Assembly: GCF_910592395.1 (NCBI RefSeq)
Contig: NC_088313.1
Coordinates: 17,766,500-17,830,499, forward strand
DNA length: 64,000 nt
Source of the DNA: Lineus longissimus
Taxonomy: Eukaryota
Direction: 5' to 3'
Of this stretch, positions 3,301 to 59,100 are shown one piece after another. Both the position numbers and the translations under genes were made by a program. Numbering within the stretch: the first letter of the stretch is position 1; each line of letters opens with the position of its first letter. The notes below the pieces were generated by a model. It was not told the origin of the DNA. It worked only from the letters and a program-made list of their open reading frames with translations, and searched no databases.

Positions 3301-3473
3301 CAGAAGAATTTAAGAGCATTTAAAGAGTATAGACTGGACTCCATACTCACTATGATTTGCATAAGTTCCTGCTGAACACTCCGTGCAGGCAGCAATGATA
3401 GTTTTATTCTCACAGTTGATTCCAAAGGCTATTGAAAGGGAACACAGCAAGATAAAAAAAAGAAGGACCAAGT
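307..3473 (-). CDS. Partial gene. It encodes a secreted or membrane protein made of tandem ephrin-receptor-like (TNFR / GCC2_GCC3 type) cysteine-rich repeats, with a signal-peptide-like stretch in the most 5' exon seen. It continues 3' beyond the window start.
   Basis: Minus-strand exons with a consistent reading frame and GT-AG (gtaagt/gtgagt) boundaries: 3473..3351 (hydrophobic DLVLLFFILLCSLSIA, then FGINCENKT; the 5' boundary is uncertain), 3113..2978, 2244..2038, 1524..1436, 1072..1009, 794..706 and 421..307. Each exon encodes one repeat of the form C-x2-C-x-x-G-x-Y/F...G...C-x2-C-P-x-G, for example CYACDRGKYAEAPGLGECKKCKIG, CDSCTPGSYTNSSGTINCHKCPIG and CTPCAPGYHASESGSPHCLPCQPG. Exon phases are mutually compatible. 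The start Met was not found; it lies upstream of 3476. Confidence 0.55.
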
Positions 3474-4227: not shown

Positions 4228-4502
4228 AGATCGTCTTTGGTACTTTACTTTGAGCGCACTTTTTGAAGTAGCTGAACGTGAAAAAATTGTTTTTACTTCT
4301 GGCGTGACACAAATTTCATCAAAAGTCAGGGTGTTGTGTGGTAACCGTAAAGTTCTTACTGTACTCCTCGAAATCTTAAGTATTTAAGGGTAAGAAATAA
4401 CCGTTTTTTACTTAGAATATGTGTTGCAGGTTCTGTAATCTTCGTTTTCTTTATGGGCTAAACTTAATTATAGCAATCAATAATGATAGCAATGCTTATG
4501 CT
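4228..4502. repeat. Dispersed repeat, segment 'Y', copy A. It is about 90% identical to 6437..6740.
   Basis: Direct alignment by eye of 4228-4502 against 6437-6740. Shared strings include ggtactttactttgagcgcactttttgaagtagctgaacgtgaaaaaattg, tcatcaaaagtcagggtgttgtgtgg, ctcctcgaaatcttaagtatttaagggtaagaaata and gtgttgcaggttctgtaatcttcgttttctttatgg, with small indels. Confidence 0.7.
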
Positions 4503-4532
4503 GGGGTCATCCTATTTTGGGTATCAGGCTGT

Positions 4533-5307
4533 TTCGCTACATTGCCAGTTCGCTACAAGTCGTTTCGCTACATGTGGCGGTCGTTTCGCTACATGGTAGG
4601 TCGTTTCGCTACATGGGTGGAGTCGTTTCGCTACATGATGGGTATGGTCGTTTCGCTACATGGAGGACGTTTCGCTACATGGGTGGAGTCGTTTCGCTAC
4701 ATGGGTGGAGTCGTTTCGCTACATGGATGTAGGTCGTTTCGCTACATGAATGTAGTCATTATTTTTACTCTATTTTACCCCACTATAATTCCCGGTGGTG
4801 ACTACAAATTTATTATAGCACAGTTTGCCGGTAAAAAAACTTATACGGTTTGATGGCGTGCAAGGGGTTCTTGTCGTCCTGGCCTGGGGCCGGGCGTTTT
4901 TCGTAGGGGCGGGCGGGGACGATCACCAACTCTTTTTTTTATGTGGCCTAACCCAGGCCAGGACGACAAGAACCCCTTGCGCGCCATCAAACCGTATAAG
5001 TTTTTTTACCGGCAAACTGTGCTATAATAAATTTGTAGTCACCACCGGGAATTATAGTAGGGTAAAATAGAGTAAAAATAATGACTACATCCATGTAGCG
5101 AAACGACCTACATCCATGTAGCGAAACGACTCCACCCATGTAGCGAAACGACTCCACCCATGTAGCGAAACGTCCTCCATGTAGCGAAACGACCATACCC
5201 ATCATGTAGCGAAACGACTCCACCCATGTAGCGAAACGACCTACCATGTAGCGAAACGACCGCCACATGTAGCGAAACGACTTGTAGCGAACTGGCAATG
5301 TAGCGAA
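4533..5307. mobile_element. Foldback (hairpin) element: near-perfect inverted repeat arms of about 370 bp around a central loop of about 40-60 bp. Each arm is built of 16-22 bp tandem subrepeats with consensus GTCGTTTCGCTACATGG(GTGGA).
   Basis: The plus ORF 4419..4853 and the minus ORF 4987..5355 translate to an identical peptide (FATLPVRYKSFRYMWRSFRYMVGRFATWVESFRYM...TYTV), which only arises if the arms are reverse complements. The spacer is itself palindromic: caaggggttcttgtcgtcctggcctgg ... ccaggccaggacgacaagaaccccttg. The unit gtcgtttcgctacatg occurs about 10 times per arm. Confidence 0.8.
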
Positions 5308-5499
5308 ACGACAGTAATTCCTATTTTGCGTCCAGTGGCGACCAGTGGCGTCCAACGCGAAATAATGAGGTGTATATGGTTAAAAATGTTTTCAAGCTCC
5401 TAAAACACTTTCAATAAACAAGATTTAGAAGTTTGGTGGAGTTTGCAAACCTAGTTTTTTTAATAATCATCACCAGAAAACGATCTTAGTATGCGTCCA

Positions 5500-5665
5500 G
5501 CAAAAGTACTGGACGGGTAGGTGTAAACTGTGGACGAAAGTGTGGACAGCGGCCCTCTAAGTTTGGTGGGCTGGCATTTCTTTGTCTTTCAATATATTCA
5601 AAAGAAATTGCAGTATTTTATGCATTATAATCTTTTTAATGGGTCAGCGAAAGAAAAAAAGAATA
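5500..5665. repeat. Dispersed repeat, segment 'X', in inverted orientation relative to copy B at 6281..6440.
   Basis: The reverse complement of 5510-5665 matches 6281-6436, e.g. ctttcgctgacccattaaaaagattata, ctgcaatttcttttaaatatattgaaagacaaagaaatg, cagcccaccaaactttgagggccgctgtccacactttcgtccacagtttacacctaccc. Confidence 0.7.
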
Positions 5666-6280
5666 AATATTTTAATCTGTTTTACGGTATGAGACTATGA
5701 CTTGTCTCAGTGAAACTGACTAGTAAGTAGTATCAAATTATTGAAGAATAAAAACAAAAAGTTGACCCTGGGATGGCGTGGGTTAATACCAAGGTAATCA
5801 AGAAAAATATTGATTTGAATTATAGACTAGTATTCAATCTTTCATAAAATATTGATTTCAGTTCTATGGTCCCCATTGTATTTTCAGGAGGGCAGCACCA
5901 GTAAGGGCTTCATTTCTGGAGACAAGCTGCTTGGAAAGTGAGAATCTGAGAACTGTTTTACAAAAATAGGATTTTCTCTAGATTTTCGTGGTGAACCCTA
6001 TGCGCCATTGCAGTGAGGGATGTCCCAGACCTTGGATATTAACCCCTTGTGGCGGTTTGTTAAAAAACACGGTTTCCTATTTTTGGCAGATTTTTAAGTT
6101 TAATAGAAAATGCATTGCAAATAATCACCGGTGTTGTCCCAGTAACCTTTCAACAGGGCTGCAGTGGTACCGCCATCTTGGATCAACGAAAGTTAGTCTG
6201 AGAGAGGGCCAACTATTTTGCCTACAACTGAATGATATTGTCATTGTCACCCAAAATCACCCATCAAAATAATTTTTGTC

Positions 6281-6740
6281 TTTTTTTCTTTCGCTGACCC
6301 ATTAAAAAGATTATAGTGCATAATATACTGCAATTTCTTTTAAATATATTGAAAGACAAAGAAATGACAGCCCACCAAACTTTGAGGGCCGCTGTCCACA
6401 CTTTCGTCCACACTTTCGTCCACAGTTTACACCTACCCCTTTGGTACTTTAATTTGAGCGCACTTTTTGAAGTAGCTGAACGTGAAAAAATTGTTTTAGT
6501 TCTGGCGTCACACATTTTTCTCCCCAAATTTCATCAAAAGTCAGGGTGTTGTGTGGTTACAGTAAAGTTCTGACTGTACTCCTCGAAATCTTAAGTATTT
6601 AAGGGTAAGAAATAAACGTTTTTTACTTAGAATATGTGTTGCAGGTTCTGTAATCTTCGTTTTCTTTATGGCATGTATAGGCTACACTTAATTATAGCAA
6701 TGAATGAATGATGTCATTGATGATAGCAATGCTTATGCTG
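6281..6740. repeat. Dispersed repeat copy B: contiguous X + Y unit of the same family as 4228..4502 and 5500..5665.
   Basis: See the two preceding entries. X (6281-6436) runs directly into Y (6437-6740), whereas in the 4.2-5.7 kb region Y and X are separated by the foldback element and X is inverted. Confidence 0.7.
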
Positions 6741-8465: not shown

Positions 8466-8798
8466 TCATGTTCTCTCCACATCCTGGTCTTTTATCAAAC
8501 TTCCTTTTATTTCACTGGCTTCCTGCACAAATGCACAACAAGGACAACAAGTGTGCATTATGATATCGCCAACGAAGCTCCCGCCGATTCCCTTCATTTC
8601 CCGAATTCTCTGTCGCGTCATTGCTGGGAATACTATGTTGGCAATAGGCACCCACATAACCAGGCCGCATAAGAGACAGTTCTCTCCGACAGCCTCTGCG
8701 TTTTTCCCAGCTGTGTAGCATGGCACAATAAAAGTCATGAGGCAGAGACTGCAATTGGAGAAACATCCGAATAATCCTTGGCCCCACTCTGCAGACAT
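8466..8798 (-). CDS. PLAC8 / cornifelin / cell-number-regulator family protein (Cys-rich, DUF614-like). Single exon, 110 aa.
   Basis: ORF 8466..8798 (-): MSAEWGQGLFGCFSNCSLCLMTFIVPCYTAGKNAEAVGENCLLCGL...RQRIREMKGIGGSFVGDIIMHTCCPCCAFVQEASEIKG. This has the PLAC8 signatures: W..GLF.CF.(D/N)C..C....F.PC, GE.C, an R..IRE.. segment, and a C-terminal CCPCCA(L/F).QE motif. Confidence 0.5.
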   Translation of the reverse strand: MSAEWGQGLFGCFSNCSLCLMTFIVPCYTAGKNAEAVGENCLLCGLVMWVPIANIVFPAMTRQRIREMKGIGGSFVGDIIMHTCCPCCAFVQEASEIKGSLIKDQDVERT

Positions 8799-10478: not shown

Positions 10479-11243
10479 ACAAGTAATCACACCGACTGAA
10501 CATATCTAGTTGAAGAGTACTTCTGAGTCATCCTCTTCACATTGAAGATTTGACGCAATACTAAACACTGTCTAATTAGACATGTAAATTGTAATTGTCA
10601 CACCAGCCTCTTATTTGGGATCCTTGAATGAGGATATAATGACAAATTTAGTCATTGTCATCTACTTGTGAACCAGTTACTGTGCAAATATCGTAGTCGG
10701 TGTCAATGCAGACCTATCCAGCGTTTTCAAATCTTTCTAATCAATGGCTTTATAAAATTGATATTTGAAACAATCTTACACAACAATTTTCAATTCTAAT
10801 GGCTTTGATTGTTAGACCTGCTAGGTCATCAGTAATTGAATTGTTTTGTGTACCAGCCAAAAATATAGAAGTACAATCAATATTCAATTGTGTTGGACTG
10901 TCCTGATAAAAAAATATCAACATTATTAAAACAAGTTACAAATATGTGTCCCCATAAGTAATCCAATATTAGGTCGAAACAACAAAGCTGACTGTCATGT
11001 GCCTGAAAGCAACAACTGACTGTCCTCGATCCCAAATCCCAGCATTCAGCAACAACTTGTGACCCATTCCAACCTCCTAGAATATACCATTCCACTCTCC
11101 GATTGGATCTAAATTAGAATGCCCTAGATCTATCCCCATCAATTTCACATCAAATGAAGCCTGTAGTATAATCCTCTATGTCAACTGTCTTTTCAGAGTT
11201 GCATTTCCATGGCAACGAGAAAGTGTACTTCCTGTTTATCATT

Positions 11244-12927
11244 ATGATAATCTCTGAGTGGTGGCAGGATCCGTTATCAGACGACATCTACGCGACGTTA
11301 AAGCACAAAGAGGAAGAGATACCTCGGTATCTCGCCCAGTCGCCACAACTTCATCAGAGGCGATATCTCGTTGATTGGGCGGCAGAGATTTGCGACCAGT
11401 TTTCATTATGCTACACGACACGCCACCTAGCGATTCATCTGCTGGACTTCTTCATGGACAACTTCTTCATCGACCTGGATAGGATCTTCTTGGTTGTGTT
11501 GGGTTGCATTCTCGTGGCCAGTAAGTAAATTTGTACATTATTAGTTGAAAGGGGAATGCAATTTCCACTTGATATCAGTGGTATACCCTAAGGCTAAGTT
11601 GTGATAAAACACATTTGTAGGACACCAGTTTTTTAGGCCTCAAGTGCTTTAAGTTAAGGAGATCTTCTGTAATTTAAATTGAGAAACTTGCTGTTCAGCG
11701 ATCTGTGTTTTTCTAAGGAAGTGCGTTTTACTCTTTGGTGCATCAGAAAATGCAAATGAAAATTCAAAGCTTTTTTTTACTCCAGGCAAATATGAAGAAA
11801 AAGAAGTGGACATTCCGCGGTGGCCCCAACTCAACAACTATATCCACAACAGCACTTTTACCGGGCTGGAATTTGTCCAAATGGAGATCACGCTATTGAC
11901 GTTTTTCAAGTGGCAAGTAGGGATTCCCACCGCTGCCCACTTTACGGACTACTTCTTAATGATATCTCTCAAGGCGATTATGGTGCACTGTGAGAGTCCA
12001 AACTGGGTGAACCAGATCCAATACTTCATGGCCAAATATATCGATTACTTTTTGGAGATATCATTACAAGGTAAGTTGGAATGATATGAAAAGTGTCACG
12101 TGTTCTATATCACATCATTGGGAAGGACATGTCAGAAGGAAGCCATACTGTAGTCTGTACAGAGCCAAATTTTTTATGATGTTACTTTCAAAATGATTGC
12201 ACCCTTGTTTGTTTACACTCATACCTGCCAGTGTAACTTGAAGCTGACTTGTCGATCTTGCTAGGGAAAGTGTAATGGCGCATGACAGGCTACTTCTTCT
12301 TGACAGACCAAACCTACAGAAAGTACCGTCCGTCCCTTGTGGCTGCAGCCAGTATCACAGCATCAAGAATCTGCCTCAATATTCCACCATCTTGGCCAAA
12401 AGAGATGGAACAAGCCTCAGGTTATTTATGGGAAGAAATTGAAGATCCTGTTTGCCGTATGCTCGAGTAAGTCGGATGTCTTCCACCATATGGAAAAATT
12501 GTTGTTGTCTCTAGAGCAGCGCCTTCAGAGTATTTCAAGACAAAATAGAATGAATCGGTTAGAAGGATATGAATAATGATTAAGAGAGTCCTCTATTTGC
12601 TATGATGACTCATCAGGATGTTGCCTGGTCATGCAGTTGTTGGTTCATCCAAGCCTGGTCTCTACTGTACAATGAAGAATGATGCTGAATCTAACACCAC
12701 CAAGTCCACAAATGTTGCATGTAGTCACCTGTAGATGACCAATTTGACACCGTCTGGCCCCTGCTTCTAGCTCCCCCCCCTTCAAACCTGATTATGTTTA
12801 TGTTATTTAATTTCTCTCTGACAGGTCTCAAAAAGTCGACCGAAACAAAGACGAAACGCAGAAGTCGACTCCTCCACCGACAAAAATGCCTCTCAAGGCC
12901 CCAGACTCTGGTTATCGATCGACCTAA
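11244..12927 (+). CDS. CCNJ: Cyclin J (cyclin box fold). Three well-supported coding exons plus one putative terminal exon.
   Basis: Exons 11244..11520, 11786..12070 and 12307..12466 (phases 1, 1, 2; donors gtaagt, gtaagt, gtaagt). The product MIISEWWQDPLSDDIYATLKHKEEEIPRYLAQSPQLHQRRYLVDWAAEICDQFSLCYTTRHLAIHLLDFFMD...LVASKYEEKEVDIPRWPQLN...LLTFFKWQVGIPTAAHFTDYFL...[36 protein letters not shown] matches human cyclin J (QSPQLSLRRYFADL...RHLAVYLLDLFMD...LLASKFEEKED...PTAAHF.EYYL...MAKYADYFLEVSLQD...APSLVAAAC). The putative last exon 12825..12927 (acceptor tttctctctgacag; ESQKVDRNKDETQKSTPPPTKMPLKAPDSGYRST*) is speculative. Confidence 0.7.
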
Positions 12928-28864: not shown

Positions 28865-29269
28865 ATAAAATGGAGAGACAGACACGGACAATATCCTGGT
28901 CTTATGCAGAAAGTTACTACATGAATGTGTCTTTTAGATAATGGTGTACTCTGGCTGACCTTAAGCTGACCTCATGCTTGTAGCTGCACATAGCATCTAC
29001 ACTTTCTGAACGGGTAGAAATTATAACTGCACTGCTAACATTTTGTCTGCATGCATATGGAACCAATTGTGGTGCTGGTGGTGCTCAACAAGTGCACTAG
29101 AAAACTTGTTTTAGTAGGTTTATAAGTCTGGTGTTAAGAATATTTCGTATCGCTCTTTTGTGTAGTTGCAGACAGCCAAAAAGATATGACATTTGTGATT
29201 TAAATAAAAGCTGTAAATAATAGAGAATCTAACAAATAAAATAGCAGTAAAGTAAAACCTTCGCTCTCT

Positions 29270-31310
29270 GTGTCAGGCTTTTGAGGCTCTTCAGATCCTT
29301 TTCTCACTTCCTTAATTGCAAGGGAGATTGTCCAACTAGTCTGAAAGAGACAGGTTGTGCCTATGATCTCATGGCAGACTCTTGAGGTTCTACAGGTCAT
29401 TTTCTTAGACCTCCTGTAAAGCCAGGAAGATTGTCAAGCTGGTCTGAAAGAGACGGTTCGTGACTGTGTCTTCATGTCGGGGCCCTTGAAGCTACATAGA
29501 TCCTATTCTGAGACATCCTTTATTGCAAGGAAGATTGTCCAACTGGGCAGACAGACGCAGGTTGTGACGATGTCTTCGTGTCAGGTGGTTGAAGGTTCAC
29601 AGAACCTGTTTTGAGACACCCTGCATTCCAAGAAATATTGTCCAGCTGGTCAGAAAGAGATAGGCTATGTCAGGCCCTCGAAGCTCTACAGCTCCTTTTC
29701 TGAGTCATCCTTGATTGCAAGGAAGAATGTCCAGCAAATCAGAAAGACACAGGTTGCGACAATGTCTTCATGGCGGACCCTTCATGTTCTATAGGTCCTT
29801 TTCTGTGACCTTCAGTATAGCCAGGAAGATTGTCCAAAGAAATAGTTTGCGACTATGTCTTTCCTTTTGACCGTTGTGGCTTTACATATCCATTTTCTGA
29901 GACATCCTGTATTCTGCATGGCCTGACAGAGACAGGCTGTGGCGGTGGCTTCATGTCAGGCCCTTGAAGCCTCACAGATCCCTTTCTGAGACATCCTATA
30001 TAGTAAGAGTGATTGTCAAACTGGTCAGACAGAAACTGGTTGTGACAGTGACTTGCTACTTGTCAGGCCCTCTGGGACATCCTGTAAAGCAAGGCGCTTT
30101 AGATCGAATTCCGAGACATCGTTTAATGCAAAGAAGATTGTCCAACTTGTCTAAAAGAGACAGATTGCGACTATGTCTTCATGGCGAACCCTTTAGTTCC
30201 CACTGGTCCTGTATTGCACGAATAACTAACTGCCCAACTGTTCAGACAGAGACAGGTTGTGATGATGTCGTCATGTCAGGCCCTTGTGGCCAAGCATATC
30301 TTCTTTCTGCCGTCGACATCCTTTATTGCAAGGAAGATTTTCCCATTGGTCAGTTAGAGGTAGGTTGTGAAGATGTCTTCGTGTCAGGCCCTTGAGGCTC
30401 CACAGAACTTTTCTATGACATCATATATAGAAAGGAGGATAATCCAACTCTTCAGAGAAAGATAGGCTGGATAGGATTGTCCAACCGAACAGAGAGAGCC
30501 AGGTTGCGACGATGTCTTCATGGTGGACCCATGAGGTTTTACAGGTCCCTTTCTGAGACATCCCATATTGCTGGGAGGATTGTCCAATCGAGCATACAGA
30601 GCCAGGTTGCGATGATGTTTTCATGATGGACCCATGAGGTTCTACTGGTCCCTTTCTGAGACATCCCATATTGCTGGGAGGATTGTCCAACCGAACATAC
30701 AGAGCCAGGTTGCGACGACGTTTTCATGATGGACCCATGAGGTTCTACTGGTCCCTTTCTGAGACATCCCATATTGCTGGGAGGATTGTCCAACCGAGCA
30801 TACAGAGCCAGGTTGCGATGACGTTTTCATGGTGGACCCATGAGGTTCTACTGGTCCTTTTCTGAGACATCCCATATTGCTAGGAGGATTGTCCAACTGG
30901 TCAGACAGATATAGGTTGTGTCGGTGTCTCCATGTTCAGACCCTTGAGGCAATAGATCCATTTGTGATACATCCTGTATAACATGGACGATTGTTCAACT
31001 GGTCAGACATAGATAGGTGACGACGTCTTCGTATCAGGCATTTGAGGCCTCGAGACACACTGTATTGCAAGGAAGATTGTCCAACTGGTCAGAGAAATGT
31101 CGTGTCGATGTCTTCATGTCACTCCCTTGAGGCTCTACATTTATTTTTATGAGACATTCTGTATGGCAAGGAGGATTGTCCATGAGACAGGTTGCGAACA
31201 TGTCTTCATGACGGACCATTAAGGTTTTACAGGTCCTTTTCTGGGACATCCTGCATTGCAAGGAAGACTCCAAGTGGTCAGACGGAAACAAGTTGTGACG
31301 ATGTCTTCAA
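29270..31310. repeat. Tandem satellite / minisatellite array, 103-bp unit, about 20 copies. The central copies (about 30380-30900) are nearly identical.
   Basis: The overlapping minus ORFs 30384..30587, 30421..30690, 30539..30793 and 30642..30896 start 103 nt apart and encode the same peptide (MDNPPSNMGCLRKGPVEPHGS.MKTSSQPGSVCS...). A period of 103 is not a multiple of 3, so the frame drifts and the array is non-coding. The unit recurs as ...ggttgtgacgatgtcttcatgtcaggcccttgaggctccacag...tttctgagacatcctgtattgcaaggaagattgtccaactggtcagacagag... Confidence 0.85.
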
Positions 31311-46927: not shown

Positions 46928-49333
46928 CTAGTCCCGGTGTGGGTGAGCAAGTTGTTCATCAGATTGTGTCCTATGGGCTGCCCTGATATTATTCGGTTGA
47001 ATATCGTTATTGTTTTGTAAATCTCCATTTCTTGGATCCTCGGCCGCAGCATCTGCTCCATTCTCCTGTCCCCATTCATGTTGTGCCTCGGACGGTTTTT
47101 CACTGTCTAAATCTTCTGGGCTATAAATAACTTCATGGCACAGCGGACAACGATCCTGAACATATAACCACTTCCGCAAGCAAACACCATGAAAGAAATG
47201 ATGACAACGAGTAATGCGTGCGGTTTTCAACTCTTGATAGCAAATAGCACACACATCATTATGCAAGTCAATTTCTGCTGAAGTTGCTGAGGGCAGTGAG
47301 TTTATCTTATTCACAGCAGTCCGTCTTCGCATGAATGTTTTCCAACCTTCTTTTGCCTGAACCCAAATGTTGAAATAAGCATGTATACACATCATGCATG
47401 CTCTTATTGTCCCACCGGACTCAAACACCATAATCCAGGCTCCGTTACAAAATAAGAAAATCCCAAAGAAGAATTCAATGGTGCTTCCTGTTGAACGTAC
47501 ATAATATACATAGTCGTCTAATTCTTCCCAAAACGTGTCCCTGCATGCATCAACCATGAAGAGTGTGTACTGAAGTAATGATATTACAACTTTTAGTATG
47601 ACTTCAATACTAAAGGCTGTCACTGCCAACAGCCATGTACTAACAGTATGTTGGGTCCATAAATAGTACAGAAAACAACTTGGAAATATAATGAGGAAGG
47701 CACACATTGTCAGAACTCGGCTGTGTTTTGAAACAGACGTGTTCCGAGAAGCACTCAGTGACATCAATAAGGGGTAAACCATACTATGAACAAAATGTAA
47801 AATTGCAGTAGATAATAAACAGAAGTTTCTATACAGTCGTTGAACCCGTTTATCAGCGTCTAAACCAGTCAATCCAGTCTGTAATGCCAATATAAAGAAC
47901 AAAATTGCTGAAACTGAACCCATGTTTTGACCCTCTTCGTTTTCCGATCCAACGAATCCAGCAAAGAGAAGTCCAATATTTTGCGTGATGTATGAAACTA
48001 CACTTGTCATTCCTGATAGTGATATCACAGTGTCACAGCCATAGACCAATAGAAGCCTGCTAATAGCCCACAGGTTATCCACAGATAGTGTGTAGTAACC
48101 CAACTTGTTGTAGTTTTCAAACACTTGGTACCCACTTAGAAGAATAACTTGATAGACAAATCTAGTGATCCAGAACACACGAAGAACGTCAGGTACGTTA
48201 AGTCGTATCCATTGATTTTCAATGTAGCCTTGAATACCATAATGTCGAATCGCATACCGACCTAGCATGTAACCCATTAGCAATGAGTGGTAAATGTGCT
48301 TTAATTTTGTAACCAGTAGTAGTAGGAGTTCTACAATAGGAAATACCATTGCTATCATGGGCATGTTACATACGACACGATCAGGGAGGCCGACAAACTT
48401 ACACAGGGAGGGTAGGAGGTATGAAGAATAGGTGAAACATCGCATAAATGTTGAGAGATAATTTGTGTAGACTTCACGCCTCATCCACGGCGGTTCCACA
48501 CGCAGATTGTTGAAATTATAAGACAATCCCAACTGCAGCGTTAGATTGATTAGAAAAGTTCTAATATGCTGTGTCACTGCTTCTCCTGGGTCCTCTGATA
48601 ATGTCAATGGTTTCGAAAGTTTCATTGCCATGTTCCTGTTCCAGACATATGAGATGGCTACCATTCCCAGAGAGATAAGGTAAGTGTAGGTGTAGATCAA
48701 TTGCTCTGTTGGCAGGAAGAAGATCAGCAGCGCACAGATGAAACCTGAAAGAAGAGAGAGTAAATTGTTCTATAATTCCTAAATCAATGATCAGGCAAAA
48801 CATAGAAAAAGACTAAGTTCTAAGTTAACTTAGGACTATCTCAGCCCAACTGATCAGCCAAGGCCAGGGTATATAGATCCAGAAGGATTGTTTGCTTGGC
48901 TTTTATAATCAATGCCTGGGACAAATCAGAAGAGGGGGATTGTTCTCCACTTTCAGTTTCACTTCACTTCAGAGACGGTCAAAACTACGCCATGAACTTG
49001 ATGATTTTTACAGAAGATTGAAACAACAACAAAACAACCGCCGCAGTAGTACTAGTAATACTAGTAGTAGTAGTAGGCACCCAAAACATACCATTACCAA
49101 CGACGAGGGACACACAGTTTTTACTTACATATCAATGACACCAAGATCCAGATCAGGGCTTTCAGATTGATAACTGATTCTTCCGACGACAGAAACTCTG
49201 GGAAGAAAAACAGAAGGAAACTTCTGTTCAGCACGGAATCCAGGACGAAAAGTGGAGGGACTCTCATCACCACATCAAAAACAGCCATATATCTCGATCG
49301 AATCGGCATTTTATTGGCTCGGGGTGACTTCAA
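46928..49333 (-). CDS. RNF145/RNF139-family polytopic RING-H2 E3 ubiquitin ligase (RNF145-like), paralog A. Two coding exons.
   Basis: Minus-strand exon 1 49333 (or the second Met at 49309)..49129, with donor T|gtaagt. Exon 2 48744..46928, with acceptor ctttcag, phase 1, 1817 nt. Multi-pass hydrophobic body, then the C-terminal RING-H2 CAICYQELKTARITRCHHFFHGVCLRKWLYVQDRCPLCHEV (compare human RNF145 ...TPCNHYFHALCLRKWLYIQDTCPMCH) and an acidic tail. Exon 1 (MPIRSRYMAVFDVVMRVPPLFVLD...) is homologous to exon 1 of paralog B, with the same intron position and phase. Confidence 0.8.
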
Positions 49334-49797: not shown

Positions 49798-52165
49798 ATG
49801 CCTCGAATAACTAAAGATCATATTATGCTTTGTGCCCATGTCATTCTTCGGGTACCAGCCCTATTTCTTATGGATTGTTGGTACAAAACCAACCCGGAAG
49901 CAATCTTGGAAAGATATGGAATTGGAATGGGCCACATCAGAGATGCAGAAATGATCCTCTCTTCTCTGTATTATGCAGGTAACATGTCACTCATATAGCA
50001 ACCTAATTCATTTAGTGTAGATGTTGGGAATGAATTGTTAGGTGTCCATCCTTCAAAGAGGCCCAAGTCACAATCTTGAAATTATAAGGACAAGGAGGAC
50101 AATGCAACAACCACTGAACCAGTTAATCACCAACAACTGCACATCCTGGGCTGGCCAATTCTAGAAGAGTGTTGAAGACAAGGCAGGAAAACCAATGTTA
50201 ACAAGATCTTCATTTGTGTTATTCAATCATGCTTGATAAATTTTTGTACCTGTTCTTGTTTCAGTCATCCTGATTGCTGTGGCGCTGATGTTTCTTCCCA
50301 TGGATATGCTGTTCCAGCTCTACCTTCACATCTTGTGTGGTGGACTCCTTCTCCTGGCACACTTCACTGCCTTCAAGTATGTTGAAGAAGAGAAAGCAGA
50401 GGAAAATCTACATTCGTCCGTCTTTGATGACAATGGCAGCATGTACAGGCTGGGGATGCATCTTGTAATTCAAGTGATTCTAAGCTCTGTTGTGGCATAC
50501 TTGATGCAGATCAAAGACTGGACAAGATTCATGTTACTCATGTACACATTGCCAATGATCGCAAGGGCAATCAATTTTCCTGTAACTGAACTTCATGTGG
50601 TACACAACTTCTCAGCCATTTTTACCATGCTTATGACCCTAATGGTTGTTTTTAACCATGTTGGGACCACCATCGATACAGTGAAGACAGGACTAAACAA
50701 TGCCCATGCTATGGTACAGAACATTGGTTGGCTCCACTTCTTTTTTACTCTTGTGGACTGGTTCCACATCCCACCTCAGTTCTTCGTCTTCTGGGTCATG
50801 ACCTTCCTAGCAGAGTTATACAAATTTACCTTTGTAAAGAACTACCAAGATGGTGTGGTCATAATTCTATTGGCAACTGTGGGGGAGTGTTGCTCCACCC
50901 CTATCAGTCTGATTGGATTGTGTATAACTGTGTCTTATACATCATGGTTCATCTTGACTTTGACTAAACTTTATCTAAAAGGCTGGGAAGGTATGAATCT
51001 GGAACGGGAGCAGACTGGATGGACCGAGGGTTTCACAATGCTACTCTTGGGAGTGCAGACTGACATTATGGAGCTAAAGGCAGCTACGCGGGCATTCTTG
51101 ATGAGTATAGTCTTATTCATTGTGGTGTTATCACTCATCCAATCAATGTATGAACTCACTGATCCAGTTCTCCTTTCACTAAGTGCGTCCCACAGCCGGA
51201 ATGTTGTACGCCACATCAAAACTGTCCTCCTCGCCACTTTCCTCTGGATGTTTCCCCTGCTAATGACATGGGCCATTTGTCAGTTCTTTGACCTGGATTT
51301 CTGGCTTTTGGTCATTATATCTAGTTGTTTGTTGACATCCATGCAAGTGTTTGGATCACTTGTTGTGTACTCTTTGTTCATCTACGATTCATTATTGACT
51401 GAACCTTGGGAAAACTTAGATGATGTTGTCTATTATGCGAGGGCAGTTACAAGAGTCTTGGAATTTGTTGTTGCAGTATTCGTTGTGTTGTACGGTGCTA
51501 AAGAATCTGTTTATGGGGAATGGAGTTGGATAAATTCCTCTATTTTAATCATACATTTCTACTTTAATGTCTGGCAGAGGTTGCAGACGGGCTGGAAAAG
51601 TTTCCTCCTGAGACGTAAGGCGGTGCAGAAAATTGAATCACTGCCACTAGCTTCGCCAGAACAACTTGAGGAATGCAATGATCTTTGTGCTATCTGCTTT
51701 CAAGAAATGACATGTGCTCATATCACGCCTTGTAAGCATTTCTTTCATGGTATATGTCTCCGTAAGTGGCTCTATGTACAGGACACCTGCCCCATCTGCC
51801 ACCAGGTTATAAACTTTCCAAATGATGTATCAGAAGATGAGTCGGCCGATGTACCTGATGCTGGAATAAGAAATGATGTAGTTCCACCACCTGCTAATGA
51901 AGCGGAAGACAACCATGCTGGAAATGCAGATGAGGACGGTTTGGAAAATAGATTCTTAATAGAAAATAACGACTCTGATGAATGGGAAGATGTGGATGAG
52001 GAGGAGATCATTGGATACGAAGGTGGTGACAGTCACAGCGATTATGAGAGCACGGATTCTCTCAGCGATTTTGAACAGAATCCGTCTGAAAGGAAAGCCG
52101 ACTTGGAATCTGATCAGGTGCGCCCCAAGGTTGACGGTGCTGGGGACAATGAGGCTAATTTGTGA
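49798..52165 (+). CDS. RNF145/RNF139-family polytopic RING-H2 E3 ubiquitin ligase (RNF145-like), paralog B. Two coding exons, about 694 aa.
   Basis: Exon 1 49798..49978 (MPRITKDHIMLCAHVILRVPALFLMDCWYKTNPEAILERYGIGMGHIRDAEMILSSLYYA; donor g|gtaaca, phase 1). Exon 2 50265..52165 (acceptor tgtttcag). The RING-H2 is CAICFQEMTCAHITPCKHFFHGICLRKWLYVQDTCPICHQV, followed by a D/E-rich tail. The body aligns to paralog A, e.g. DDVVYYARAVTRVLEFVVAVFVVLYGA versus DDYVYYVRSTGSTIEFFFGIFLFCNGA. Confidence 0.8.
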
Positions 52166-53730
52166 GCATGACTGGGTTAATGAGGCTGTATCGGAATGTA
52201 TTTGGTTTCCATGTCAATTTAATGTTGTGTTTTGTTCAAGAGATAATGTCGCAAACCAGCTGTCAGTCACATCCGACATTGTCCTTGTGTGTTGTTCAAA
52301 AGACGCTGTGGCAATGATGTTTCAGTGGAAAGCCATGTTTGACATTGTCCTTGCGTGTTACTGTTGTTCAAGAGACTTTGCCACACTGAGGTTTCAATAA
52401 AGTGACATTCGACATTTTCCTTGTATGATTTCAAGAGGTCGCAATACTGTTAACATTGTTAAATGATCAACCACATCTGAGATTCTTCCTATTTGTGTAG
52501 TGGATTGCTGTTAATTTTTCAAATACTTCATGGTATTCCCATAGGGGTGGTCCTTCTTAGCTTGGTTGACAATAGCTTGAATTAAATAATCACCAATACA
52601 TCAAGTCTTTAATCAGGTTGGGGTGGAGGAAGGATGTGTAATCATTATTTCCCCAAACTGATATGCATGTCTGGTGAGGGGAATAAGTCATAGTTTTGTT
52701 CCACAATTATGTAACTGGGGAACTTGTACAATTGTCTCCAATCTCACTGTAAAACAGTTTAAGAGGGAGGAGGACTATGTTCACTGGTTCAAAATTTCCT
52801 GATATGTTGGATTATCCCTTTACATGGGCAATGAAAATTGATAAAACCACTTAGACAAGGCTGTCATATTTGATAGCCCTTGGTGGCAAGAGTCACTGGA
52901 GTCCTGGAGGGATTTTCAACAGATGTAACAGGCCATCAATTTGTAATTCTGTTTGTGACACATCTACCTTGAAGGGTACTTTGCAAGAAAGAACACTGTC
53001 ACAATGCCAGGACGAAAGAAGGTCAATTTTTGTGTCGCAATATTATTGTTAAAATTGAGTGCCTGAGACGATGAGGAGAGATTGTAAACAGTTATCTGCA
53101 TTCAAATCATTTTTCTTCCTCGTGTAATAAATATGTTATATGAATCTGTTGTCTTATTCTCAGTATGTCCATTTGAAAAAATGAAAGTAAAATCAATGGA
53201 ATAAGTCTGCGTGCACACTCCTCCCAGAAGGGTACTACCCCTGGTGATCAGATTGGCCTGGAGATACCCAATATGAAGAGTCAGTTCAATATTGGTGGGT
53301 AATAGGGTATCTGCTCCCAAGTAGGCTCATTTTCAAATCTACACTTATGGTAGATGTGCATGGATCGGGGAAAAGTCGCCGAGCTTCAAGTTTTTGACTG
53401 CCAAATCACTCACAGCCCGACAGTGGTGTCGCCAAAGCATGAGTCTGGATGGGGACCAGCATGACCCATCTAAATTAGCTAAGCTTCAACTATGTAAAAC
53501 TTGGGATATCCAAATGGCTCCCCTGAATGTTTCGATATAATCCGTAACAGCTGCCGCTGCATATAAATAGATTTGACGGAGTACAATATTCAATGAAATG
53601 GCCAGGGCCATTGTGCTCACCTCATGTGGAGGAAAGATGGATAAAGAGCATGGTCTTGTGTCATGTAGTGTTAGGTTTGATGTAGGTCCAAGCAATTACA
53701 ATTTCCCCAAAATGGCCAATTTACAGTACA

Positions 53731-54620
53731 TTCGACCTCTGTGACCTTGAAAAGTAGGTCAAATCAAAGAAGACCCGGGTGACACATTGAATGGTTGTAA
53801 GAATTAGATGTACCTATGATATAAAATTGGTGCCAATCGGGCAAGTCATTAACTAGGAATAATGGCATTTTGAAGAATTTAGGATTTGGCCCCCTCCCTG
53901 GAGGCCAAACGGCAAATCAAATCGCACCAAACTTCGGTACCTGAGATCACCTGACCAAGGGGTACATGTGTACTTAATTTGTGATCAATAGTCATTGCAG
54001 TTAAGAAACGTGCCATAGTTACGGCCTGACGGCGAATTTAGGCCATTTGGCCTCTGTGACCTTGACAAGAAGGTCAAATTAAAAACCTGTGTGACATATA
54101 CTGTATGGTGGTTAGATGTACCCATGATATCAAATTGGTGGCATTCGGGCAGGAAGTTGAGGAATAATCACATTTTTAAGGTTTTTGGATTTTGCCCCCT
54201 GGTGGTCAAGTAATGAATCATATTGGACCAAACTTCGGTCCCTGAGATCACCTGACTAAGGGGTAAATGTGTACCAAATTTGGTATCAATAGTCATTGCA
54301 GTTTAGAAACGTGCCATCGTTACATCCTAACGGCCAATTTACACCATTTGACCTCTGTGACCTTGAAAAGGAGGTCAAATCAAAAACCCGGAGGATATAT
54401 GATGCACCTTTGCTAGAAGTACCTACCATATTTTTTTCAAAATTTCATGACTACTATTAAGGGAGATATTGCATATTTTCACTTTTAACGTTTGGCCCCC
54501 TGGTGGCCAAACCATGAAACGAATCGGACCGAAACTTGGTCTCCCAGGTGTCATTACATAAGGGTACATGTGTACCAAGTTTCAACTCAATAGCTCTAAC
54601 AGTTACGAAACGTGCCCTGC
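53731..54620. repeat. Tandem repeat, about 300-315 bp unit, roughly 3 copies (53731-54043, 54044-54343, 54344-~54620).
   Basis: Recurring blocks: c(c/a)tttg(g/a)cctctgtgaccttga(c/a)aag(t/g)aggtcaaat(c/t)aaa..., ...ggccccctggtggccaaac..gaa(t/a)c.gaccaaacttcggtccctgagatcacctgac(c/t)aaggggta(c/a)atgtgtac(c/t)aa(a/t)tt.g.atcaatagtcattgcagtt(t/a)agaaacgtgccat.gttac.. are read three times in series. Confidence 0.7.
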
Positions 54621-54622
54621 TA

Positions 54623-54632
54623 ACGGACGACG

Positions 54633-54715
<83 letters not shown>

Positions 54716-54716
54716 A
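54623..54716. repeat. (GAC)n microsatellite, about 28-31 units, directly abutting the end of the ~300-bp tandem repeat.
   Basis: cggacgacggacgacgacgacgacgac... read directly. It generates the poly-R / poly-S / poly-D artefact ORFs 54457..54774, 54536..54763 and 54620..54808. Confidence 0.95.
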
Positions 54717-55106
54717 CGACGGACGCCACGGTATGGGATAAGCTCACCTCTGCTAAGAGGTGAGCTAAAAACAAAACATTTTCTTGTACATATGTAAGAC
54801 ACGTTCATAGCTTTATTTAGTTCGAGGCCTCGCCTTCATTTCACATGCGATGCATCACTAACAGGCACTAAATGGTTGTGAAGTACAACAGGGACATCAG
54901 CAGAGCTATGCTTTCTGTCCCCATCTAATATGCAGAGTAGAAGCTGACAATGAGCATAAAACAACCACATTGTTATAATTTCAACAGACTTTGTAAAAAC
55001 GTGTTTAGCACAGTTAACTGTCCAGCACAATTAGTCCAGCGCCATAATAGTTCCTTCTGAAGTCGAACGAATGACAGACTCCTAAATCCTTGAAAATCTC
55101 TATCCC

Positions 55107-58649: not shown

Positions 58650-59100
58650 TAATAAACCATTTAACACCTTCAGCACCGAACCACGTAGATCTATCTACGC
58701 GGCCCAAATCCCCCCTCTTGGAGCTGGTTGTCGGAGTCTCATGGACTTCATGAAAGAACTACGCCATCTCCATCTTCAGGGCAAGGTAGGAACTGAAAAT
58801 ACCGTGAAAATACGGTTGTGTCTTTTCAGTTCCTACCTTGCCCTGAAGATGGCGATGGCGTAGTACCTTTATGAAGTCATTTAAAGTTCTTAACTACGCC
58901 ATCGCCATCTTCAGGGCAAGGTAGGAACTGAAAAGACACAACGGTATTTTCACGGTATTTTCAGTTCCTACCTTGCTCTGAAGATGGCGATGGCGTAGTT
59001 CTTTCATGAAGTCCATGAGATTCCGATAACCAGCTCAGGAGGGGGGATTTGGACCACGTAGATCTGCTTGGTTCGGCGCTGAAGGTGTTAATGGGAACTC
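58650..59100. repeat. Nested palindromic (double-hairpin) repeat. The outer inverted arms are about 200 bp each, and each arm contains its own perfect palindrome of about 45 bp.
   Basis: The outer arm 58668-58740 ...cagcaccgaaccacgtagatct..gcggcccaaatcccccctc... is the reverse complement of 59030-59090 ...gaggggggatttggaccacgtagatctgcttggttcggcgctgaagg. The inner palindrome cttcagggcaaggtaggaactgaaaa...ttttcagttcctaccttgccctgaag sits at 58775-58860 and again at 58900-58985. The block is flanked by three copies of the module gattcatac.ggtga.a.a.cat (58441-58500, 59140-59190, 59195-59225). Confidence 0.75.

Follow-up and report, generated by a model that had tools for sequence, protein, structure and literature searches.

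The window, by which we mean the whole 64-kb stretch of DNA analysed, is DNA of Lineus longissimus (Nemertea) and probably belongs to chromosome 6. Its positions 4520-5318, which lie between genes, are fairly likely to hold a single Foldback-like DNA transposon of the cut-and-paste type, non-autonomous and classed as a large MITE. The foldback is an ordinary mobile-element relic, real and tidy, and represents no new kind of system. It has a length of ~800 bp (799 nt), ~92% of which is taken up by its two arms of ~362 nt each, and it is devoid of coding capacity, the sole ORFs being read-through of the arrays. The element and its immediate flanks comprise the following features, given in window coordinates:

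4510-4519, unstranded: left putative target-site duplication, TCCTATTTTG, an exact direct repeat of 5319-5328
4520-4528, + strand: left non-inverted terminal motif, GGTATCAGG (9 nt), between the duplication and the inverted repeat, from the arm alignment with flanks
4529-4748, + strand: left arm, outer domain, with 2 degenerate and 9 full 16-nt cores (GTCGTTTCGCTACATG) and spacers of 3-9 nt
4749-4888, + strand: left arm, inner non-repetitive domain, pairing with 4952-5091 and holding the three arm mismatches
4889-4951, unstranded: loop or middle domain, 63 nt, unique, GC-rich, non-palindromic and without an ORF
4952-5091, - strand: right arm, inner non-repetitive domain, from the arm alignment
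5092-5314, - strand: right arm, outer domain, with 9 full and 2 degenerate cores and spacers identical to the left arm, in mirror order
5315-5318, + strand: right non-inverted terminal motif, TAAT (4 nt), from the arm alignment with flanks
5319-5328, unstranded: right putative target-site duplication, TCCTATTTTG, an exact direct repeat of 4510-4519

Alignment of the arms gave a gapless inverted repeat between 4531-4888 and 4952-5309, with 358 nt per arm, ~99.2% identity (complementary) and 63 nt between them, and this reaches 4529-5314 once a 2-nt indel is allowed, which agrees well with the near-perfect inverted repeat of ~370 bp placed at 4533-5307 in a preliminary description of the region. 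The arms differ at three pairs of positions (4749/5091, 4781/5059 and 4859/4981), all of them transitions and all within the inner non-repetitive part. That description had also presented the arms as arrays around a palindromic spacer. The arrays hold for the outer ~220 nt of each arm but not for the inner ~140 nt, which is unique sequence, and the 63-nt middle at 4889-4951 was found to be non-palindromic. Folding of the single strand predicted a hairpin of ~360 bp at -484 kcal/mol, in keeping with the long hairpin that had been proposed. Arms composed of an outer tandem-repeat domain and an inner unique domain, separated by a short middle, reproduce the described Foldback layout (PMC4079207, PMC3169594), and this arrangement of arms, arrays and middle bears out the earlier view of a Foldback-type transposon or large MITE architecture. 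No further copies of the arm or loop were detected in the 64-kb window.

Using Tandem Repeats Finder, the arrays showed a period of 22 with 8.8 and 9.2 copies, and higher-order periods of 63-66 and 88. The 16-mer GTCGTTTCGCTACATG, allowing up to 2 mismatches, occurs 19 times compared with an expectation of 0.05, with every occurrence falling within 4559-5312. While the core is conserved at 143/144 positions, the spacers between cores vary in both sequence and length (3-9 nt) and are changed at 20/54 aligned positions (Fisher P=4e-12). A conserved core with free spacers fits sequence-specific protein binding, and the earlier suggestion that the subrepeat may be a protein-binding motif is supported to this extent. 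By analogy, the 16-nt cores are probably transposase-binding sites, with Galileo, in which tandem repeats inside the long terminal inverted repeats have been shown to carry extra transposase (THAP) binding sites, adopted as the functional model for this candidate role.

We then considered the ends of the element. The longest word common to both 40-nt flanks is the 10-bp TCCTATTTTG, with P(>=10)=0.0038 against window-derived controls. A flanking duplication had been named beforehand as a test, and the P of ~0.004 obtained for it is good yet not overwhelming, many features having been inspected. Between this duplication and the inverted repeat lie 9 nt on the left and 4 nt on the right, motifs of unequal length, and the exact termini of the element are therefore inferred; its ends are short and non-inverted, and the inverted repeat is therefore sub-terminal. 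The predicted pre-insertion (empty) site would read GGGTCA-TCCTATTTTG-CGTCCAGTGG, giving the predicted junction sequence GCTGGGGTCATCCTATTTTGCGTCCAGTGGCGACC, and when every flank and every segment between repeats was aligned pairwise by a sensitive method, neither a paralogous empty site nor extra homology emerged in the window. The ratio of observed to expected CpG is 1.31 in the element against 0.50 in the window (2.6 times the surroundings), and this value and the presence of only three transitions between the arms both fit a recent arrival. We read the insertion as recent from the 99.2% identity of the arms and the lack of CpG depletion.

These same observations bear on an unlikely alternative, namely that the structure is not mobile and arose as a local palindromic duplication, in which fold-back priming or a template switch, in the course of replication or repair, made an inverted copy of a pre-existing array of 22-bp repeats together with the adjacent 140 nt and left 63 nt between the two copies. 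Such an origin would be in line with the lack of a second copy in the 64-kb window, with the near identity of the arms, as expected soon after the event, and with the gap that separates the ends of the inverted repeat from the flanking direct repeat. However, a template switch would give no reason to expect a 10-bp direct repeat on both sides, conservation of 143/144 core positions with free spacers or a CpG ratio 2.6 times that of the surroundings, and the domain layout agrees point for point with described Foldback families.

We also weighed whether the host might make use of the locus, as a source of hairpin RNA (endo-siRNA) or as a CpG-island-like palindrome of arrayed transcription-factor or insulator sites ~1 kb upstream of an Ephrin_rec_like gene, an origin as a transposon still being compatible with such use. 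It would give a perfect hairpin of ~360 bp if transcribed, has ~20 conserved cores with CpG retained (observed/expected 1.31), and is ~1.05 kb distant from what is putatively exon 1 of this signal-peptide gene (3310-3471, - strand). Nevertheless, there was no match to an Rfam family, and the retained CpG and the identity of the cores are accounted for just as well by a young insertion, so that we regard host use as very unlikely.

If the foldback is a transposon, an autonomous relative would supply transposase in trans, which would bind the 9-11 core sites per arm and pair both ends; the transposase would then excise the element and insert it with a 10-bp staggered cut, leaving TCCTATTTTG on either side. 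Tentatively, and by analogy with Tm1, Tetris and Drosophila FB, the superfamily may be Mutator/Phantom (MULE), because of the 10-bp duplication and the sub-terminal inverted repeat, an assignment that uses solely duplication length and end structure since the analysis turned up neither a transposase gene nor an autonomous partner. Most Foldback elements are placed in Mutator and have duplications of 8-10 bp (PMC4079207). Phantom MULEs likewise have duplications of 8-10 bp, and the 10 bp seen here falls within the Mutator/Phantom range of 8-10 bp, in which 9 bp is usual. The element shows a further Mutator/Phantom feature in that its inverted repeat stops short of the termini, with GGTATCAGG and TAAT lying outside it as short non-inverted ends; ends of this kind occur in Tm1 and in some MULEs and are not universal (PMC3169594).

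Derivation of a Foldback-like element from a non-Mutator superfamily (P/Galileo-like, hAT, or another with independently lengthened terminal inverted repeats) we consider highly improbable, even though the Foldback structure arose independently in several superfamilies (PMC4079207, PMC3169594) and the element has no transposase to decide the superfamily. The sole candidate duplication, at 10 bp, is a misfit to hAT, P/Galileo and piggyBac/Kolobok. Duplications are 8 bp in hAT, 7-8 bp in P/Galileo and TTAA in piggyBac/Kolobok elements. A Galileo-like member of the P superfamily was therefore rejected, the sole significant flanking repeat being 10 bp vs 7-8 bp. Likewise, a hAT MITE was rejected, with no 8-bp repeat abutting the inverted-repeat ends, which read CTGT...ACAG, and no hAT-type YARNG ends flush with an 8-bp repeat, and so was a piggyBac or Kolobok MITE, the foldback flanks not being TTAA. 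Other palindromic MITEs do occur in the genome: one at 58665-59087 of the window, unrelated to the foldback, is bordered by TTAA at either end.

That the palindrome is an artefact of assembly or library preparation, for instance a chimeric read, is scarcely credible: palindromes are a recognised class of long-read artefact, but the assembly has 79x HiFi coverage and was built using hifiasm with 10X polishing, the 0.8-kb palindrome is far shorter than a read and, because the assembly is HiFi/hifiasm, the ~800 bp lie well inside single reads, and the locus has three arm mismatches, distinct unique flanks with a direct repeat, and a unique 63-nt loop that is presumably not SMRTbell adapter sequence.

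Among described families, the foldback invites comparison with Tm1, a Mutator/Foldback family of Meloidogyne whose ends have 7-bp asymmetric motifs, A1/A2, within a 9-bp duplication, followed by arrays of a ~14-bp unit (Gross & Williamson 2011, PMC3169594). The left end motif GGTATCAGG is analogous to A1/A2. It resembles Tm1, and especially the MITE-like Tm1-ML, in having composite terminal inverted repeats formed mostly of a short tandem unit (~14 bp in Tm1; a 16-nt core repeated every ~22 nt here), a conserved domain further in, short asymmetric end motifs that are not inverted and lie within an 8-10-bp duplication, and MITE-like members without coding sequence. It has no sequence similarity to Tm1 and differs from it in the length of the end motifs (9 and 4 nt, against 7 and 7 in Tm1), in arm identity (99%, against a Tm1 average of 93%), in the variable length of its core spacers and in its host phylum, Nemertea; no autonomous copy of Phantom type is known for the Lineus element. 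Drosophila Foldback (FB) and Tetris/DAIBAM are likewise built of long, modular inverted arms that contain tandem subrepeats around a short middle devoid of coding sequence, and have the 8-10-bp duplications that underlie their Mutator assignment (PMC4079207). In Tetris, however, the arms are up to 1.7 kb with 220-bp repeats and the non-repetitive domain lies outside the array, whereas the array here extends almost to the tip with a unit of ~22 bp, and there is no sequence similarity to FB, Tetris or DAIBAM. Galileo (P superfamily, Drosophila) likewise has foldback-like long arms with internal tandem repeats, but it is a P-superfamily element with a THAP transposase, its duplications are 7 bp, which the 10-bp repeat here does not fit, and its copies have caused inversions while the Lineus copy has an intact duplication. 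The sea-urchin TU elements (Liebermann/Hoffman-Liebermann 1983-85) are reportedly marine-invertebrate foldbacks with outer ~15-bp tandem repeats, inner unique domains and 8-bp duplications, and would resemble the Lineus element in their outer tandem-repeat and inner unique domains but differ from it in duplication length.

Searches for relatives found no second copy in the 64-kb window or in metagenome, viral, prokaryotic-genome or plasmid collections; absence from these public collections says little, because none holds nemertean genomes. A strict motif-pair pattern had no match in metagenome, viral or prokaryotic-genome contigs, while a relaxed version matched 4 metagenome contigs, 3 of them chance-like and 1 a weak lead. 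This last, an unrelated contig (L004, PJEL010180226.1), has ten copies of TTTCGCTACATGTAGCG in both orientations. Scanning viral contigs with a single 14-mer gave isolated matches, one per contig, as by chance. The 122-aa read-through ORF of the right arm had no match in a set of 5.8 billion proteins, a negative that is uninformative because the window's own copy is also absent from that set, where the genome is represented by annotated proteins only. A plasmid or viral iteron-type replication origin was rejected, the context being a metazoan chromosome without an adjacent ORF and searches of plasmids, viral contigs and prokaryotic genomes having given no match. We consider it improbable that the 16-nt core, which has a half-site related to the palindrome GCTACATGTAGC, marks an undescribed Foldback/MULE-like lineage of several marine eukaryotes, or else that the host has adopted this copy, lying upstream of the neighbouring secreted Ephrin_rec_like gene, as a regulatory element of hairpin-RNA or CpG-island-like type.

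A literature search returned no description of such transposable elements in Nemertea, and the Lineus copy, if confirmed genome-wide, would provide a described Foldback-type family for this phylum. Its youth and tidy structure suffice to delimit the ends and a putative transposase-binding core. Palindromes of this length and perfection act as fragile sites and may give rise to double-stranded RNA, and near genes they may affect genome stability and regulation. Current understanding is unchanged by this copy, and its main use would be in annotating the repeats of nemertean assemblies from the Darwin Tree of Life.

We finally assessed the repeats neighbouring the foldback, termed X and Y, which are arranged as follows:

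4235-4503, + strand: Y copy 1, ~91% identity with indels to 6439-6740, separate from the foldback
5503-5676, - strand: X copy 1, inverted, 94-96% identity to 6263-6450, carrying GTCCACACTTTC-type subrepeats
6263-6740, + strand: X-Y copy 2, contiguous, with X at 6263-6450 and Y at 6439-6740

These positions confirm that a direct Y and an inverted X flank the foldback, with a contiguous X-Y ~2 kb away. The X-Y family had been called dispersed, but there are two local copies of each repeat, all within 2.5 kb, and none further in the 64-kb window. Likewise, the foldback had been suggested to have inserted into, or recombined with, an X-Y copy, but 7 nt separate its duplication, which is intact, from the end of Y. 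The intact flanking duplication argues against any exchange involving the foldback copy since insertion, and the foldback is 285 nt away from 4235 and 175 nt away from 5503, the points of separation of X and Y. A foldback-mediated inversion of X was rejected on these grounds, the duplication being intact and the X/Y breakpoints 175-285 nt away. Searches of Rfam (gathering threshold and E<=1) and a tRNA scan found nothing, so X and Y are without a detectable small-RNA or SINE head. We infer that X and Y reflect a separate local duplication or rearrangement that was not caused by the foldback. Other genes in the neighbourhood include a PLAC8 ORF and a TRC8 homolog (P0001).

The foldback element occupies 4520-5318, and its anatomy can be read directly from the sequence. 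Its two 358-nt arms (4531-4888 and 4952-5309) are 99% complementary and separated by 63 nt, which upholds the inverted repeat of the preliminary description with small corrections only, and when the flanks are included in a global alignment the paired sequence reaches from 4529 to 5314, allowing for one 2-nt indel. All three mismatches between the arms (4749/5091, 4781/5059 and 4859/4981) are transitions and fall in the inner part of the arm. Using Tandem Repeats Finder we detected arrays at 4558-4748 and 5083-5282 with a period of 22 (8.8 and 9.2 copies, respectively) and higher-order periods of 63-66 and 88. The 16-nt core of these arrays, GTCGTTTCGCTACATG, is present in 19 copies at no more than two mismatches, compared with 0.05 expected in the window, and is confined to the element. 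Each arm contains two degenerate outermost cores and nine full cores, whereas its inner 140 nt are non-repetitive, and the view of the arms as subrepeat arrays thus holds for the outer part but not for the inner. Likewise, the 63-nt centre, first described as a palindromic spacer, is GC-rich and not palindromic. Folding prediction of the element as single-stranded DNA gave one ~360-bp hairpin (-483.7 kcal/mol, z = -66). This layout is the standard Foldback scheme of an outer repeat domain, an inner domain and a short middle (PMC4079207).

Four features set the element apart from a simple palindrome. Examination of the flanks for a target-site duplication revealed an exact 10-bp direct repeat, TCCTATTTTG, at 4510-4519 and 5319-5328. 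Among 20,000 control pairs of 40-mers, sampled across the window with the spacing kept, the frequency of sharing a word of at least 10 was 0.0038. The repeat does not abut the inverted repeat but is set off from it by 9 nt (GGTATCAGG) on the left and 4 nt (TAAT) on the right, neither of which is an inverted copy of the other. Within an arm the core was conserved at 143/144 positions, while the spacers between cores, 3 to 9 nt long, differed at 20/54 aligned positions (Fisher P = 4e-12). Plain satellite expansion would also copy the spacers, and the conserved core with free spacing instead resembles an array of sequence-specific protein-binding sites. The observed/expected CpG ratio reached 1.31 for the element as a whole and 1.5 for its arrays, compared with 0.50 in the window and 0.41-0.47 in adjacent unique DNA. 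Together with the 99.2% arm identity, this retained CpG suggests that the element arrived recently in a genome otherwise losing CpG.

Both the architecture and the flanking duplication back the earlier Foldback or MITE reading, and we consider the element to be probably a copy of a non-autonomous Foldback-type transposon. Tm1, a Mutator/Foldback family of root-knot nematodes, has duplications of 8-10 bp, usually 9, and from the outside in carries asymmetric 7-bp terminal motifs beyond the inverted repeat, arrays of 13-15-bp units and an inner conserved motif; its members include MITE-like ones and one autonomous element with a Phantom-type MULE transposase (PMC3169594). The same order of duplication, non-inverted end motifs, tandem arrays and inner domain is found here. 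The Mutator superfamily takes in most Foldback elements (PMC4079207, PMC3169594) and 8-10-bp duplications are listed for Phantom MULEs (PMC6446971); from duplication length and sub-terminal ends alone, we tentatively suggest a Mutator/Phantom affiliation. In the mechanism that we infer, the transposase of an autonomous relative would bind the 9-11 cores of each arm and synapse both ends, with pairing eased by the foldback geometry, before cutting at or near the non-inverted tips; integration by a 10-bp staggered cut and repair would then leave TCCTATTTTG on each side. [quoted passage not shown] For those annotating repeats in nemertean genomes the element is of use; a specialist in transposons would find it unsurprising.

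A local fold-back duplication would account for the single copy in the window and the near-identical arms, but under it the 10-bp direct repeat at the flanks, the contrast between core and spacers and the excess of CpG remain unexplained, and we regard it as unlikely. A hairpin-RNA or regulatory element used by the host, which would be compatible with a transposon origin, is improbable. Foldback structure is convergent, having arisen independently elsewhere, as in Galileo of the P superfamily (PMC4079207, PMC3169594), but a superfamily other than Mutator is quite improbable as the 10-bp repeat does not match the hAT, P or TTAA families. An assembly artefact is very improbable: the assembly is HiFi-based (tnLinLong1.1: hifiasm on 79x PacBio HiFi, 10X-read polishing and a separate alternate-haplotype assembly; PMC8593623), reads are much longer than the palindrome, the loop and the flanks are unique, and the arms carry mismatches.

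The neighbouring X and Y repeats are laid out as first described, with Y at 4235-4503 and 6439-6740 (~91% identity) and X at 5503-5676 (inverted) and 6263-6450 (94-96% identity). However, self-BLAST of the whole window returned no additional copy of X, Y or foldback pieces, and what had been called a dispersed family is local within the window. Nor is the proposed interplay between the foldback and X-Y supported. X and Y come apart where Y copy 1 begins (4235) and where the inverted X has its inner end (5503), at distances of 285 and 175 nt, respectively, from the element, and Y copy 1 ends at 4503, with the foldback's flanking repeat beginning 7 nt beyond it; the foldback therefore did not split an X-Y unit. 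Both copies of the flanking repeat are intact, which also makes ectopic exchange or aberrant transposition of this foldback copy since insertion less likely. Three models of X and Y remain: an older palindrome of the form rc(XY)-586 bp-XY had one of its arms broken by inversion of 4235-5502, for which an imperfect overlap of 12 nt between both broken ends (CTTTGGTACTTT / AAAGTACTGGAC, 8/12 matching) would fit staggered breaks; two copies were truncated independently; or the two-copy Y repeat adjoins a separate element at 5503-6450 whose terminal inverted repeats are the X copies. Sensitive alignment of the flanks detected no more homology to choose among them. The X copies at 5525-5667 and 6274-6416 form a 143-nt inverted repeat (94%) with ~600 bp between, and 5503-6450 could be a separate terminal-inverted-repeat element. 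X also holds three tandem GTCCACACTTTC units (6394-6428). CpG observed/expected in X/Y was 0.7-0.9, and the contrast between window, X/Y and foldback suggests methylation-driven CpG loss in host DNA and repeats of graded age.

The foldback sits between two minus-strand genes, the first two of the following features:
3310-3471, minus strand, signal-peptide-like first exon of a gene with Ephrin_rec_like cysteine-rich exons
8466-8798, minus strand, complete 110-aa PLAC8-family ORF
11178-11528, plus strand, Cyclin_N exon near the foldback

The region is therefore intergenic metazoan DNA, and bacterial and viral collections served as negative controls only. Neither the exact PLAC8 ORF product nor the TRC8 homolog described below had a record in the contig index, and the gene model annotated for PLAC8 may therefore be a different one. 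A 122-aa ORF reading through the arm array had no match in a protein search, which did not recover the window's own copy either, and the element had no match among plasmids. A strict core-motif pair was not found in metagenome, viral or prokaryotic-genome contigs, while a relaxed pair (TTTCGCTACATG, 3-16 nt, TTTCGCTACATG) matched four metagenome contigs. Three of these are probably chance matches, each with two copies in sequence that is of low complexity or contains Ns. The fourth, L004 (PJEL010180226.1; 1-1426, 1.4 kb, 42% G+C), carries ten TTTCGCTACATGTAGCG copies in both orientations, three of them tandem at 20-nt spacing and one identical to the window core at 16/16 nt; the innermost foldback units GCTACATGGATGTAG and GCTACATGAATGTAG are close to GCTACATGTAGC, the palindrome at the core of the TTTCGCTACATGTAGCG copies. 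As a lead only, this may mean that another eukaryote has a related binding motif, or it may be coincidence. L004 also contains a nested inverted-repeat element (765-1358) that has CAGGGGTGGACAGTTATAT as its terminal repeat and is densely filled with subterminal CGCTTATATAAGCG repeats.

In the 64-kb window as a whole (G+C ~40%), a tRNA scan and Rfam search gave no match, and only three ORFs reach at least 150 aa, two of which encode TRC8_N + RING proteins, one with 100% identity to the annotated Lineus longissimus 'protein TRC8 homolog'. These single-ORF genes (46928-48700, minus strand; 50279-52165, plus strand) lie head to head ~1.6 kb apart, share only 29% identity and look like adjacent RNF139/TRC8 and RNF145-type paralogues. 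A palindromic MITE-like element of 423 bp at 58665-59087, unrelated to the foldback, is 89% self-complementary over its full length, rising to 97% in the nested arms of 144 nt. The TTAA that borders it at 58661-58664 and again at 59088-59091 is suggestive of a non-autonomous element of the piggyBac or Kolobok type. It ends in CACC...GGTG, whereas the ends given for Kolobok are RR...YY (PMC9587614). A 103-bp tandem repeat spans ~2 kb (29268-31309), with a block at 30473-30897 (4.1 copies, 94% identity) between older copies at 67-80%. Finally, 53711-54725 contains 2.1 tandem copies of a 301-bp unit (74% matches), after which a (GAC)31 microsatellite occupies 54626-54721.
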